Position numbers and translations under genes: made by a program. DNA of 3,757 nt, taken from a virus (Duplodnaviria > Heunggongvirae > Uroviricota > Caudoviricetes). Numbering within the stretch: the stretch's first letter is position 1; the number at the start of each line of letters is the position of its first letter. The stretch is from positions 1 through 3,757 of IMG/VR virus record IMGVR_UViG_2681813227_000020. One strand, given 5' to 3'. Below the pieces are notes generated by a model. It worked only from the letters and a program-made list of their open reading frames with translations, was not told where the DNA came from and ran no database searches. Below are positions 1,887-3,757 of the stretch, one piece after another.

Positions 1887-2098
1887 CACCTCAGCAAGAA
1901 AACGCCCTTCGCAGCATTGCCCGTCTGGCTAACTCTGAAATCAAAAAAGCCAGACAGCAGTTTCCGGATAAAAACGTCGATGACATTTGCCGTAGCGTAC
2001 TGAAGAAGCACCGCGAAACGGTAACGCTGATGGGATTCACACCGACTCATTTAAGCCTGGCAATCGGTATGTTAAACGGCGTCTTTAAGGAACGGTGA
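1883..2098 (+). CDS. orf61: Small exo-xis region protein in the orf61 position, 71 aa from ATG 1883 (93 aa if ATG 1817 is used)
   Basis: Open frame 1817..2098. The stretch from ATG 1883 (MTPQQENALRSIARLANSEIKKARQQFPDKNVDDICRSVLKKHRETVTLMGFTPTHLSLAIGMLNGVFKER) looks like a genuine small helical protein. The 22 codons from 1817 (MHSSGSGLHILCAYACRHGTCS) are Cys/His-rich, low quality, and overlap the micro-ORF frame. Gene symbol is positional (between orf63 and orf73), not sequence-verified. Confidence 0.55.
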   Translation: MTPQQENALRSIARLANSEIKKARQQFPDKNVDDICRSVLKKHRETVTLMGFTPTHLSLAIGMLNGVFKER

Positions 2099-2117
2099 AC
2101 ATGAAAAGCAAAATCAT

Positions 2118-2147
2118 CAGGGAGCTACAGGCTCCTTTTTTATTATT
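2118..2147 (+). terminator. Candidate rho-independent terminator inside the operon (hairpin GGAGC-tacag-GCTCC followed by TTTTTTATTATT)
   Basis: Stem GGAGC 2121-2125 pairs with GCTCC 2131-2135 around a 5-nt loop, extendable by A-U and G-U pairs at 2119-2120 / 2136-2137, then a T-run from 2136. Lies in the 98-nt gap between the orf61-position gene and orf73. Confidence 0.45.
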
Positions 2148-2196
2148 CGCATTCACCCTCAAGCGTATTAACCAACAATTCAGGGATTAATGAAAG

Positions 2197-2418
2197 ATGG
2201 CAGACCTCATTGATTCAGCATCAGAAATTGAAGAATTACAGCGCAACACAGCAATAAAAATGCGCCGCCTGAACCACCAGGCTATATCTGCCACTCATTG
2301 TTGTGAGTGTGGCGATCCCATAGATGAGCGAAGACGCCTGGCCGTTCAGGGTTGTCGGACTTGTGCAAGTTGCCAGGAGGATCTGGAGCTTATCAGTAAA
2401 CAGAGAGGTTCGAAGTGA
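2197..2418 (+). CDS. orf73: TraR/DksA-family C4 zinc-finger protein (lambda Orf73-like), 73 aa
   Basis: Protein MADLIDSASEIEELQRNTAIKMRRLNHQAISATHCCECGDPIDERRRLAVQGCRTCASCQEDLELISKQRGSK. Acidic N-terminal helix (D3, D6, E10, E12, E13) followed by Cx2C (C35, C38) ... Cx2C (C56, C59) with an extra Cys at 53, the hallmark architecture of TraR-like proteins. 73 aa, as lambda orf73. Stop overlaps ea22 start (GTGA at 2415-2418). Confidence 0.85.
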   Translation: MADLIDSASEIEELQRNTAIKMRRLNHQAISATHCCECGDPIDERRRLAVQGCRTCASCQEDLELISKQRGSK

Positions 2419-3053
2419 GCGAAATTAACTATCAGGAACTGCGTGAAGCGGCAGCGCAGGCAATGCATGACGACTGGGGATTTGATGTGGACCTTTTCCA
2501 TGAGATGGTAACACCATCGATTGTGCTGGCACTGCTGGATGAACGGGAAAGAAACCAGCAATACATCAAACGCCGCGACCAGGAGAACGAGGAGATTGCG
2601 CTTACGGTTGGGAAGCTGCGTGTTGAGCTTGAAGCAGCAGAGAACAACCTTATTGATAGTGAATGCCATGTTGCTGAACTGGAAGAAGCTCTACGCGATA
2701 AGCAGGCGTTACTTGAAGCCTCAGAAAAGCGCAACGCAAAATTACAAAGCGAGAATGCATACATCCGCAACCGGTACAAAGAACTGGACCTATTAATCGG
2801 GAAAAACATTCTGGTCATGCAGGCTGCCATTATCGAATGGCAGGCAACTGGCGACGCTAAGAGCGGACTAGCATGGATTTATAACACACTGTTTGGCCCT
2901 GGCGAATTACCGGACGAATCTGAGAAAGATGCTCAGGCCTACTTTAATCGCAAATATGCACCGATTGACGAAAAGCTTATGGCGCTTCACAAGTGGTTTT
3001 GGGAACAAAGTGAAGCCGAGCGCGCCGCTGGCATTCGCATCAAAGGAGAGTGA
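2415..3053 (+). CDS. ea22: Ea22-family protein, 212 aa, with a central coiled-coil segment
   Basis: GTG start at 2415 with SD AGAGAGG (2403-2409) 5 nt upstream. N-terminus MSEINYQELREAAAQAMHDDWGFDVDLFHEMVTPSIVLALLDERERNQQYIKRRDQENEEIALTVGKLRVEL and C-terminus ...AERAAGIRIKGE resemble my recollection of lambda Ea22, while the middle (heptad-like, E/A/L/K-rich: ELEAAENNLIDSECHVAELEEALRDKQALLEASEKRNAKLQSENAYIRNRYKELDLL) is different and longer (212 vs 182 aa in lambda). Confidence 0.8.
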   Translation: MSEINYQELREAAAQAMHDDWGFDVDLFHEMVTPSIVLALLDERERNQQYIKRRDQENEEIALTVGKLRVELEAAENNLIDSECHVAELEEALRDKQALLEASEKRNAKLQSENAYIRNRYKELDLLIGKNILVMQAAIIEWQATGDAKSGLAWIYNTLFGPGELPDESEKDAQAYFNRKYAPIDEKLMALHKWFWEQSEAERAAGIRIKGE

Positions 3054-3054
3054 G

Positions 3055-3258
3055 ATGAACGGACAAATCTCAATTGTTCGACCGGGAGCATGTGACGATT
3101 GCGAGATACGAATGATTATTCGTCTGGCGATGGGGAAAACAATAACTGCTCTCATTACTCCAGAAAATCTCGCATTAGCATTAACCGGAAAGTCAGACCT
3201 GCCAGTAGAGCTAAAGCTGCGAAATGTTGAGATTAAGGTGAATATCAGCAATGAATAA
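3055..3258 (+). CDS. Hypothetical small protein, 67 aa, with one CxxC pair (C13, C16)
   Basis: ATG 3055 lies 1 nt after the ea22 stop (TGA 3051-3053), with a GGAG Shine-Dalgarno (AAAGGAGAG, 3042-3050) upstream inside the ea22 3' end. Protein MNGQISIVRPGACDDCEIRMIIRLAMGKTITALITPENLALALTGKSDLPVELKLRNVEIKVNISNE. The ORF-track entry 2893..3258 is this frame extended upstream into ea22. It occupies the position where lambda carries ea8.5, but I do not recognise the sequence. Confidence 0.6.
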   Translation: MNGQISIVRPGACDDCEIRMIIRLAMGKTITALITPENLALALTGKSDLPVELKLRNVEIKVNISNE

Positions 3259-3330
3259 CAATCCTCGCATTCGCGGGGATTTCTTTTATCTGAACTCGCT
3301 ACGGCGGGTTTTGTTTTATGGAGATGATAA

Positions 3331-3498
3331 ATGCACTTCCGAGTCACAGGTGAATGGAATGGAGAACCATTCAACAGAGTTATCGAAGCCGAGAACATCA
3401 GCGACTGCTATGACCACTGGATGATATGGGCGCAGATAGCACATGCAGAAGTAACCAATATTCGAATTGAAGAACTGAAAGAACACCAAGCCGCCTGA
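3331..3498 (+). CDS. Hypothetical small protein, 55 aa, conserved-looking prophage protein of unknown function
   Basis: ATG 3331 preceded by GGAG (3320-3323) at 7-nt spacing. Protein MHFRVTGEWNGEPFNRVIEAENISDCYDHWMIWAQIAHAEVTNIRIEELKEHQAA has a globular-looking composition (aromatic core residues, charged C-terminal helix). Stop TGA 3496-3498 lies in the loop of a strong intrinsic terminator. Below the ORF-track length cutoff. Possibly related to small DUF-type proteins found next to xis in E. coli prophages, but I cannot verify this. Confidence 0.55.
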   Translation: MHFRVTGEWNGEPFNRVIEAENISDCYDHWMIWAQIAHAEVTNIRIEELKEHQAA

Positions 3499-3512
3499 TG
3501 GCGGTTTTTTTA
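3488..3512 (+). terminator. Strong rho-independent terminator (CCGCC-tgat-GGCGG followed by TTTTTTT)
   Basis: Perfect 5-bp GC stem 3491-3495 / 3500-3504 with loop TGAT, extendable by G-U and A-U pairs at 3488-3490 / 3505-3507, followed by 7 T (3505-3511). The loop contains the stop codon of the 55-aa ORF. Confidence 0.7.
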
Positions 3513-3556
3513 TTACCTGATTTGCAGGTTCGATTCCATATTCGGAGATAGCACTC

Positions 3557-3757
3557 ATGCAACACGAACTACAACCTGATTCACTGGTTGATTTGAAATT
3601 CATCATGGCTGATACTGGCTTTGGTAAAACCTTCATCTATGACCGGATTAAGTCCGGCGACCTGCCAAAAGCCAAAGTTATCCACGGGCGAGCAAGATGG
3701 TTATATCGTGACCATTGTGAGTTCAAAAATAAACTCTTAAGCCGCGCCAATGGGTAA
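3557..3757 (+). CDS. xis: Excisionase / AlpA-family helix-turn-helix DNA-binding protein, 66 aa
   Basis: ATG 3557 with GGAGA (3544-3548) 8 nt upstream. Protein MQHELQPDSLVDLKFIMADTGFGKTFIYDRIKSGDLPKAKVIHGRARWLYRDHCEFKNKLLSRANG. The motif around FIMADTGFGKTFIYDRIKSGDLPKAKVIHGRARW is typical of AlpA/Xis-type HTH proteins of E. coli prophages and is not lambda Xis. The position at the end of the left operon fits an excisionase followed by an integrase outside the window. Confidence 0.8.
   Translation: MQHELQPDSLVDLKFIMADTGFGKTFIYDRIKSGDLPKAKVIHGRARWLYRDHCEFKNKLLSRANG

Follow-up and report, generated by a model that had tools for sequence, protein, structure and literature searches.

The gene at positions 2415 to 3053 (plus strand) of the 3,757-nt stretch of viral DNA analysed here, referred to as the window, combines the N-terminus of lambda Ea22 with a C-terminal half of the 933W type. 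This allele lies outside the three described Stx variants and is common in E. coli genomes. Ea22 is already known to be a mosaic gene, and the one small new point that we put forward, as a candidate reading of the nucleotide sequence, is that its conserved last eight codons may, in addition, supply the gene that follows with its ribosome-binding site and start and form a short joint for recombination. The overall explanation, namely a lambdoid Ea22 member in which a coiled-coil stalk and a C-terminal domain form a scaffold assembled from cassettes, with such a role for the 3′ junction, is in our judgement likely to be right.

[quoted passage not shown]

The coding sequence (2415..3053, plus strand) has a GTG start and a TGA stop, encodes 212 aa, and is supported by the ORF list, Pfam and phrog. 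Its product matches the Pfam family PF13935 Ead_Ea22 (InterPro IPR025153) over residues 2–99 with 77.4 bits (E=2e-21), well above the gathering cut-off of 27 bits, and phrog_250 (E=1.5e-84); a search of NCBIfam gave no family. The identical protein is recorded in NCBI as ‘MULTISPECIES: ead/Ea22-like family protein’ on 445 contigs, and its 212-aa relatives are each present on 1000 or more. The ORF is a real, ordinary and already catalogued member of the lambda Ea22 family.

Immediately upstream lies a gene for a TraR/DksA-type zinc-finger protein (2197..2418, plus strand; Pfam PF01258, E=7.7e-9; phrog_54), the homologue of lambda orf73, whose TGA stop overlaps the GTG start of ea22 in a GTGA sequence that is identical in lambda. 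Downstream, a 67-aa ORF (3055..3258, plus strand) matches phrog_1222, a family of unknown function (E=3.4e-40), and is annotated ‘hypothetical protein’ in NZ_AP042673. The gene order bet-exo-orf60a-orf63-orf61-orf73-ea22-...-xis is collinear with lambda, with bet and exo encoded within the window according to the ORF list, and ea22 follows the homologues of orf60a, orf63, orf61 and orf73 as a member of the pL-transcribed exo-xis block. The gene would be an early accessory gene of this region in an E. coli lambdoid prophage.

A mosaic of lambda-type and 933W-type cassettes

Positions 1–2639 of the window are 96.8% identical to lambda DNA (blastn) and the homology ends at 2639; the sole later match to lambda is a 31-nt island at 3026–3056, 100% identical and with unrelated sequence on either side. 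The boundaries with lambda, one at gene nt 225/226 and the other 27 nt short of the stop, are sharp, as is that with 933W, located by blastn at gene nt 50–108. At the protein level, 67 of the first 77 residues (87%) are identical in lambda Ea22 (182 aa), as are all of the last eight, AGIRIKGE, and a global alignment of the 127 residues between these conserved ends needs many gaps and yields only 25 identities. The sequence-only reading, which had called the N-terminal ~70 residues and the tail Ea22-like and had contrasted a length of 212 aa with the 182 aa of lambda, is confirmed on both counts, the second by the ORF list and the lambda Ea22 record. Its view of the region as recombination-prone and mosaic is likewise borne out by the sharp boundaries against lambda and 933W, and pairwise alignment revealed no uniform identity with lambda or with the Stx-phage variants. 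Uniform identity is trivially found with identical database entries (445 contigs).

The first constant segment, C1, covers residues 1–16 (MSEINYQELREAAAQA; 2415..2463, plus strand) and is a leader helix common to lambda and 933W by blastn and alignments, AlphaFold2 placing the helix at residues 6–16; collinearity of the window with lambda extends over the whole segment, that with 933W as far as 2463. It is followed by a variable cassette, V-N, at residues 17–36 (2464..2522, plus strand), which here is of the short lambda type: the region is a gap in the 933W blastn match and collinear in lambda. At least six alternative versions of V-N occur in the alignment of homologues, Stx-phage homologues having another sequence together with a 45-residue insertion, and megablast matches to phages begin at gene nt 109. 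The N-terminal ~70 residues, proposed earlier as a conserved unit, are thus conserved with lambda at 87% identity but contain a second swappable cassette at 17–36.

The second constant segment, C2, corresponds to the proximal coiled coil (residues 37–75; 2523..2639, plus strand) and matches both lambda and 933W by blastn. From there the protein passes into a distal coiled coil of the 933W L0069 type, unrelated to lambda (residues 76–113; 2640..2753, plus strand). Identity with 933W reaches 99.4% over 2523–3054 (532 nt, blastn), and within the 933W type the constant segment of codons 37–75 extends to about codon 113. The 80 viral contigs compared gave 41 unique Ea22 proteins, which have the N-terminal part in common but form 11 clusters by their C-termini. 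The earlier suggestion of a modular protein holds as regards a mosaic with sharp boundaries, but the replaced unit is the distal third of the coil plus the complete C-terminal domain (~100–204) and not a central core. The gene would be built from cassettes with three constant in-frame joints, at codons 1–16, at codons 37–75 and at the 31-nt 3′ junction. Ea22 mosaicism and the entire mosaic architecture seen here have already been published (PMC7093339, PMC10834534).

A coiled-coil stalk and a widespread C-terminal domain

The a/d heptad register stays unbroken from residue 37 up to about residue 140, with modest significance in a shuffle test (P=0.014), and continues across the junction between lambda-type and 933W-type sequence in the distal coil. 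AlphaFold2 models residues 34–145 as a single continuous helix, with block-mean pLDDT of 87–95 across residues 41–110 and about 90 in C2. The large central coiled coil of the Ead/Ea22 family is thus present by prediction from both heptads and AlphaFold2. A heptad-patterned centre rich in E, A, L and K had been noted; the register at 37–140 and the richness in E, L and A (17, 15 and 12% of residues 78–125) agree with this, but K amounts to only 8% and residues 141–204, where the heptad signal is absent (P=0.64), are not coiled coil and are part of a separate conserved helical domain. The predicted plan of the protein would be a short lambda-type N-terminal region, an unbroken coiled-coil stalk of ~100 residues and a compact all-helical C-terminal domain.

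This C-terminal domain (residues 114–204; 2754..3026, plus strand) is predicted to be all-alpha, carries the motif W-I-x-N-x-L-x-G-P-G-E and has no Pfam family. The columns from N114 to A204 are invariant in being shared by proteins of E. coli, Salmonella, Citrobacter and Klebsiella whose N-termini are unrelated, and many small coiled-coil prophage proteins have the domain at their C-terminus; its relatives amount to 386 cluster representatives in one search and 1136 proteins in another. It is also found fused to, or adjoining, genes for DUF550 dATP/dGTP pyrophosphohydrolases. Comparison with Citrobacter gave a dN/dS of 0.06, and comparison with Klebsiella a pS of 0.82 and a pN of 0.04, values that point to strong purifying selection on the domain.

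AlphaFold2 places helices at 148–160, 167–181 and 186–204 with pLDDT of only 50–65, that is, with low confidence, and the domain modelled alone reached a mean pLDDT of 59. A Foldseek search of the PDB with this low-confidence model returned nothing below E=3 and was treated as meaningless. PDB sequence searches gave just summed weak matches to designer PPR repeats for the full-length protein, and nothing below E=0.1 for a 26-sequence profile of the domain; a Pfam scan of ten longer relatives found sub-threshold coiled-coil families only. The domain is of interest as a widespread and strongly constrained module without a Pfam family.

The conserved tail looks like a gene-boundary element

The junction element (3026..3057, plus strand) comprises the codons for (A)AGIRIKGE, in which an AAGGAG Shine-Dalgarno sequence is embedded, and continues through the TGA stop and a single base to the ATG with which the following gene starts. 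Since this ATG (3055) lies 1 nt past the ea22 stop and 6 nt past AAGGAG, the 67-aa ORF is probably translationally coupled to ea22, as judged from the layout; a literature search combining ‘ea22’ and ‘translational coupling’ found no papers. The arrangement GCTGGCATTCGCATCAAAGGAGAG-TGA-N-ATG sits between unrelated upstream and downstream sequences: the same junction nucleotides are found behind seven or more unrelated C-terminal domains and ahead of nine or more different downstream genes, and these domains and genes are found in reassorted combinations. An identical tail 24-mer is present in 13 of 16 unique genes. The tail shows about threefold less diversity at third codon positions than the conserved coil does (0.046 versus 0.145), a contrast that concerns only eight third positions in sequences chosen for ending in GIRIKGE.

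In members of the family with other tails (KGDKS, HKESA, PQEVN, EDILR) the layout of Shine-Dalgarno sequence and ATG is preserved, with a stop overlapping or abutting the ATG and a purine-rich Shine-Dalgarno-like motif. The relatives with the same domain in Klebsiella and Citrobacter have altered the peptide (GIKVEAE, GIGVKGE) and kept the purine-rich motif and the abutting or overlapping ATG. Lambda has the same tail, yet its downstream ATG reads ATC and no gene starts there, therefore the ribosome-binding-site function cannot be the sole reason for conservation.

An R/K-G-E ending has been reported for all Ea22 proteins (PMC7093339), and the ‘+GE’ ending has been described as of unknown significance (PMC7093339, PMC10834534). 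A simple candidate explanation at the nucleotide level would be that it represents the Shine-Dalgarno sequence and start of the next gene together with a Red-beta joint of minimal size. The K-G-E codons would constitute the AAGGAG ribosome-binding site, with the stop abutting the ATG of whichever gene follows, and the tail would be conserved because the 3′ junction doubles as ribosome-binding site and abutting start of that gene. The minimal segment for efficient pairing is 23–27 bp for Red-beta and 31–34 bp for RecA (PMC3945230); the 27–31 identical bases would thus be of sufficient length for Red-beta-mediated homologous exchange, so that C-terminal domains and downstream genes could reassort independently at this point. 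The conserved tail, which AlphaFold2 predicts to be disordered and whose eight codons are conserved as nucleotides together with the stop and the next ATG, looks like a gene-boundary element and not a protein module.

The antisense reading frame

On the minus strand, an ORF of 132 aa with 29% Ser (2432..2830) is a compositional by-product and not a gene. This had been proposed with GAA/GCA-rich codons as the cause, and the by-product part is upheld but not the codons, all 38 antisense Ser codons lying opposite sense GAN (28/38; Glu/Asp) or CTN (10/38; Leu). A codon-shuffle test gave only P=0.027, a Pfam search of the ORF found no match and a promoter scan upstream of it detected no promoter-like site. 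The ORF matches phrog_13760, which most likely reflects over-annotated phage records. Conservation is uninformative in this case because the third codon positions of both strands coincide in the antisense frame; by this frame geometry, changes synonymous in the sense strand tend to be synonymous in the antisense one too.

The DpdH label

The PADLOC model PDLC02890 ‘DpdH’, a profile of only 127 positions, matches residues 101–199 (E=8.7e-37) and likewise all tested proteins related through the C-terminal domain; lambda Ea22 gives no match. According to a preprint (10.1101/2025.02.24.639861), dpdH encodes an ATPase domain that takes part in DNA replication. No dpdA (TGT-like), dpdB or helicase genes were found in the window, nor dpdA, dpdB or helicases in four genomic contexts of the domain (Klebsiella, Citrobacter, Yersinia and E. 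coli), all of them lambdoid early or nin regions. In the light of the literature and these four contexts, the match was rejected as evidence of membership in the Dpd 7-deazaguanine restriction-modification system. Given the short profile, the ATPase description and the absence of dpd neighbours, the PADLOC label may belong to a mis-assigned model.

Alternative explanations

It could be argued that AGIRIKGE is conserved as a peptide, for instance a tag for docking, degradation or regulation common to all Ea22 variants, to which the Shine-Dalgarno and start layout is incidental. The reported R/K-G-E at the ends of all Ea22 proteins (PMC7093339), the retention of the tail in lambda though no start codon follows, and the AlphaFold2 prediction of an exposed and disordered tail (pLDDT below 50), as expected of a tag, fit such a reading. 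We consider it unlikely, as it is the nucleotides, beyond the residues, that are near-invariant (the 24-mer shared by 13/16 unique genes), conservation reaches beyond the stop to include the start codon of downstream genes that are unrelated to one another, and the layout persists both where the peptide changes, in Klebsiella and Citrobacter, and behind the quite different endings KGDKS, HKESA, PQEVN and EDILR. Decay of the gene from a longer ea22 of the Stx-phage type, with loss of the N-terminal insertion, would account for the PGAP annotation ‘incomplete; partial in the middle of a contig; missing N-terminus’ given to the 100% identical gene of E. coli OkiPb01711, and viral contigs do contain truncated alleles, with lengths of 55, 83 and 100 aa. 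A pseudogene is nevertheless hardly credible for an ORF intact from lambda's own GTG start, including the GTGA overlap with orf73, whose short N-terminus is arranged as in lambda (87% identity at residues 1–77), whose exact protein is found on 445 contigs, with 212-aa relatives each on at least 1000, and whose C-terminal domain shows strong purifying selection.

Hyper-variable cassettes in early accessory regions of prophages are typical of defence and anti-defence genes. The C-terminal domain might be a DpdH-related defence or counter-defence module, and Ea22 proteins scaffolds for exchangeable effectors and not lysis-lysogeny regulators as such; the match of PDLC02890 to the window protein and to all tested domain relatives, lambda Ea22 excepted, and the DUF550 pyrophosphohydrolase genes fused to or beside the domain would agree with this. 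We regard it as very unlikely in view of the 127-position profile, of the preprint (10.1101/2025.02.24.639861) in which dpdH is an ATPase-domain gene, and of the lack of dpdA, dpdB and helicases in all four contexts examined, which are lambdoid early or nin regions. A broader version, in which Ea22 proteins are coiled-coil scaffolds whose effector domains are hot-swapped at dedicated in-frame joints, the 27–31-nt element combining the roles of tail, of ribosome-binding site plus start for the gene behind it, and of minimal Red-beta substrate, and the domain found here is a defence or counter-defence effector and not a lysogeny regulator, is one that we find decidedly doubtful.

Role and significance

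The preferred reading remains that of a lambdoid Ea22 scaffold assembled from cassettes. By analogy, we infer the functional role of the window protein from the literature on the lambda, Phi24B and P27 proteins, which have other C-terminal domains. Ea22 is pro-lysogenic, its deletion speeding induction and lowering the yield of lysogens (PMC7093339), and a full-length tetramer with a dimeric C-terminal domain has been described for lambda Ea22 and the P27 variant; results of the 2020 ACS Omega study of Ea22 biophysics (PMC7271347) are given as reported in PMC10834534 and PMC8614690. The stalk would oligomerise the protein and display the C-terminal domains, as in lambda and Stx-phage Ea22, these domains would bind a putative host or phage partner, and the protein would bias the lysis-lysogeny decision towards lysogeny. 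Ea22 is one of few pro-lysogenic accessory genes in lambdoid and Shiga-toxin phages, and therefore its variants bear on the ease of Stx prophage induction; the present copy contributes little, both this very protein and the mosaic principle having been recorded before.

Comparison with known systems

Lambda Ea22 (NP_040612, 182 aa) occupies the same slot directly after the TraR-like orf73, shares the GTGA overlap, and is identical to the window in its last eight codons plus TGAGAT. The window protein is 30 residues longer, with a stalk ~40 residues longer, and its distal coil and whole C-terminal domain are unrelated to those of lambda. The lambda C-terminal domain is mixed alpha/beta by NMR (beta1-beta2-alpha1-beta3-beta4-alpha2; Goddard et al. 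2024, PMC10834534), whereas that of the window is predicted to be all-helical, and we found no alignable similarity to the lambda alpha/beta domain (lambda residues ~103–174) beyond residue ~112 of the window protein.

L0069 of 933W (AAD25414, 257 aa) is essentially identical over residues 37–210, a span that includes the distal coil, the C-terminal domain and the tail (177/192 identities overall, ~100% from residue 37 on). Both proteins match PF13935 alone, L0069 being a Stx-phage variant without DUF551, and we infer that it is the published variant ‘V1’ of Goddard et al. 2024, the window protein having the V1-type distal coil and C-terminal domain. Variants V1–V3 are all said to contain an extra N-terminal segment absent from lambda, and the C-terminal domains of Stx-phage variants are unrelated (PMC7093339, PMC10834534). 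The window protein, in contrast, lacks the 45-residue Stx insertion of 933W and is of the lambda type at residues 17–36, and the gene downstream in 933W is a different one.

The third group of relatives are small ‘ead/Ea22-like’ prophage proteins of 106–163 aa in Citrobacter, Klebsiella, Salmonella and Yersinia, whose C-terminal domain is 45–99% identical to that of the window. Their N-terminal halves are unrelated to the window's, many are without a PF13935 match, and some of the genes are located not in exo-xis but behind the replication genes, in the nin region. In all of these proteins the domain forms the C-terminal part and follows a short coiled coil, and, as in the window, the tail carries a Shine-Dalgarno-like motif and an abutting ATG.

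Genomic context of the Ea22-family gene

The window corresponds to the early-left region of a lambdoid prophage, which is transcribed from pL and shown here in the direction of transcription. It carries bet (1-786), exo (783-1463), genes similar to orf60a (DUF1317; 1454-1642), orf63 (DUF1382; 1615-1806) and orf61 (1817-2098), a TraR/DksA zinc-finger gene homologous to lambda orf73 (2197-2418), the Ea22-family gene in question (2415-3053, + strand), small ORFs matching phrog_1222 (3055-3258) and phrog_676 (3331-3498), and a TorI-like excisionase gene (3557-3757). The latter encodes 66 aa; its RefSeq counterpart, a KplE1-type excisionase gene, is named 'response regulator inhibitor TorI'. In Escherichia coli OkiPb01711, dsdC adjoins the prophage end. 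Taken together, the TorI-type gene and the position of dsdC locate the window in the argW-dsdC locus, at the attR-proximal end of a lambdoid prophage.

A small ORF at 2101-2190 (MKSKIIRELQAPFLLFAFTLKRINQQFRD) has a conserved counterpart, a 31-aa ORF, between orf61 and orf73 of lambda, a region where small ORFs have been detected by ribosome profiling according to the literature. Inside it, at 2119-2137, lies a terminator-like hairpin with a T-run after it (AGGGAGCTACAGGCTCCTTTTTT), and three further terminator-like hairpins are found on the + strand 3′ of the ea22 block (3260-3281, 3292-3311 and 3488-3507), the last after the phrog_676 ORF and within a segment 96.9% identical to lambda. Overall, the scan of 2000-3757 gave 6 sites versus 1.6 expected from shuffles.

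Mosaic structure of the gene

The GTG start of 2415-3053 overlaps the upstream stop (GTGA), exactly as in lambda, and the 212-aa product matches Pfam Ead_Ea22 over residues 2-99 (77.4 bits, cut-off 27; E=2e-21) and phrog_250 (E=1.5e-84). The alignment with lambda Ea22 (NP_040612, 182 aa) has 67/77 identities across residues 1-77, the same final eight residues, AGIRIKGE, and 25 identities, heavily gapped, in the intervening 127 residues; the conserved ends and the different, longer middle noticed in the sequence-only reading are thus borne out. In DNA sequence, window and lambda run collinear at 96.8% identity from nt 1 to 2639, where homology ends abruptly, to return as a 31-nt island at 3026-3056 (100%) and again at 3255-3510. 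Phage 933W matches the window at 97.2% identity over 1-2463 and at 99.4% over 2523-3054, with unrelated sequence in between (2464-2522); its protein L0069 (AAD25414) differs in being 257 aa long, with a 45-residue insertion where the window protein has a short lambda-type sequence.

From these two comparisons the gene is therefore a five-piece mosaic, in which constant segments common to lambda and 933W (residues 1-16; residues 37-75, the proximal coiled coil; residues 205-212 with the stop) alternate with a variable cassette of lambda type (residues 17-36) and a variable segment of 933W type unrelated to lambda (residues 76-204). In proteins with this C-terminal half, at least six unrelated sequences, from 0 to about 60 residues long, occupy the place of residues 17-36. 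Two common natural deletion alleles in the alignment of related proteins (A3) lack the whole central coil, residues 43-99 (P0135 on 71 contigs, P0139 on 351). Truncated alleles of 55, 83 or 100 aa are present on many viral contigs (L046-L061, from IMG/VR; also L042 and L011); they have a premature stop within or just past the proximal coiled coil, after which lambda-like sequence goes on out of frame. The ea22 gene is frequently inactivated in prophages.

The coiled coil and the C-terminal domain

A single unbroken heptad register runs from residue 37 to about residue 140 (shuffle P=0.014), with V, R, I, N, V, L, L, V, L, L, N, N, Y, I and M in successive a positions, and stays in phase over the lambda/933W junction. 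AlphaFold2, with a 28-sequence alignment, predicted one helix spanning residues 34-145 (block-mean pLDDT 87-95 for residues 41-110), about 40 residues longer than that of lambda Ea22, which makes 'extended coiled coil' a fair label. Residues 141-204 gave no heptad signal, hence are not coiled coil, and are part of a separate domain.

This domain, from about residue 100 to 204, recurs behind unrelated N-termini in proteins of 106-163 aa from E. coli, Salmonella, Citrobacter, Klebsiella and Yersinia, with columns invariant or nearly so among relatives from N114 to A204 and a conserved core of E-x-D-L-L-F-G...A-V-I-E...W-I-x-N-x-L-x-G-P-G-E-x-P...D-A-Q-A-Y-F. An exhaustive HMMER search found it in 386 cluster representatives, nearly always in C-terminal position, and a profile search in 1136 proteins. 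Selection on it is strongly purifying, with a dN/dS of 0.06 against a Citrobacter copy, and against a Klebsiella copy pN is only 0.04 at a pS of 0.82 (synonymous sites saturated). Pfam holds no family for it and the PDB no relative; AlphaFold2 models of it are all-helical with low confidence (pLDDT 50-65), which is why the fold search came back empty. In one related protein (P0159) the domain is fused to a DUF550 N-terminus. A DUF550 dATP/dGTP pyrophosphohydrolase is also encoded directly downstream or one gene further on in the Citrobacter loci and in one of the two Klebsiella loci, L085 (loci L085, L086 and L087).

The gene is mosaic and modular, as had been proposed from the sequence, but the swapped unit had been placed in a central coiled-coil core. 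Since the C-terminal part is a separate recurring domain, the unit differing from lambda instead comprises the distal stalk and an entire effector-like C-terminal domain.

The PADLOC model PDLC02890 ('DpdH', 127 positions) matched residues 101-199 (window 2715-3011; E=8.7e-37) and all tested relatives of the domain, and left lambda Ea22 unmatched. We do not take this match as evidence of membership in the Dpd system, given that dpdH is described as an ATPase-domain gene of the 7-deazaguanine restriction operon (preprint 10.1101/2025.02.24.639861) and that dpd genes are absent from all four genomic contexts examined. The label is probably misleading, and the model itself may be mislabelled.

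The antisense ORF

The antisense ORF (2432-2830, - strand) encodes 132 aa, 38 of them serine, and had been taken for a by-product of GAA/GCA-rich codons. By-product it is: all 38 serine codons lie opposite sense GAN (28) or CTN (10), the scan found no promoter-like site upstream, and Pfam gave no match. The codons responsible are those for Glu/Asp and Leu rather than GAA/GCA. Against shuffled codons its length stands out only mildly (P=0.027, three frames tested). The ORF matches phrog_13760 (E=2.9e-41), most likely reflecting phage records with overlapping ORFs annotated on this stretch; since several Stx-phage records carry up to four overlapping 'hypothetical proteins' along it, the family probably derives from over-annotation.

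The conserved tail as a candidate gene-boundary element

Ea22 ORFs were taken from 80 viral contigs, found by the N-terminal 77 residues, and the 41 unique proteins, where at least 130 aa long, fell into 11 C-terminal clusters. AGIRIKGE or a one-residue variant ends at least seven of these unrelated clusters. The conservation holds at the nucleotide level, as GCTGGCATTCGCATCAAAGGAGAG-TGA-(G/T)-ATG with unrelated coding sequence before and unrelated genes after; the tail 24-mer is identical in 13 of 16 unique genes, and third-position diversity is 0.046 in the tail versus 0.145 in these genes' conserved coiled-coil block. The K-G-E codons read AAGGAG, 6 nt before an ATG that lies one base past the stop and, in the window (3055), opens a 67-aa ORF. 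Elsewhere in the family, other endings come with the same layout, a purine-rich motif and then an ATG overlapping or abutting the stop (AAGGGAGATAAATCATGA; AAGGAGAGTGCGTAATG; CAGGAGGTTAATTGATG; Klebsiella, AAGGTGGAGGCTGAGTGATG; Citrobacter, AAGGGGGAATGAGATG).

Pairings of C-terminal domain with downstream gene are reassorted: the window-type domain is followed by four different genes, and two downstream genes each stand after two different domain types. The island of 27-31 identical bases fits the minimal efficient pairing segment of Red-beta (23-27 bp) or RecA (31-34 bp) (PMC3945230), and bet and exo are encoded just upstream. The tail had been regarded as an Ea22-like protein end; its conservation as nucleotides points, in our reading, to a gene-boundary element, which would act as ribosome-binding site, translational coupling point and homologous-recombination joint. 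Against this, lambda retains the tail with an ATC in place of the downstream ATG, and we add the caveat that the tail peptide itself may have a role. The significance of the '+GE' ending is listed as unknown (PMC7093339), and our literature search turned up no publication that connects ea22 with translational coupling.

Comparison with known Ea22 proteins

The exact 212-aa protein is on 445 contigs as NCBI 'MULTISPECIES: ead/Ea22-like family protein', and relatives of equal length (212 aa) at 90-97% identity are on at least 1000 contigs each. A 100% identical intact copy lies in the OkiPb01711 prophage next to dsdC (NZ_AP042673.1; L090 3616-4254); its PGAP label, a partial pseudogene 'missing N-terminus', is an annotation artefact, presumably because the reference protein has the longer Stx-type N-terminal insertion.

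Full-length Ea22 is tetrameric, the lambda C-terminal domain dimeric and the phenotype pro-lysogenic; the Stx-phage variants V1-V3 have unrelated C-terminal domains and an extra N-terminal segment, and ea22 genes are explicitly stated to be mosaic (PMC7093339, PMC8614690, PMC10834534). L0069 is presumably V1, since PF13935 is its sole Pfam match and L0065 carries DUF551. We infer from homologues that the coiled-coil scaffold would present an exchangeable C-terminal domain and so bias the phage towards lysogeny. The window gene has already been catalogued, and the mosaicism of its family is published. Only two points add slightly to the literature: a nucleotide-level reading of the tail, and a C-terminal domain that is strongly constrained and has no name.
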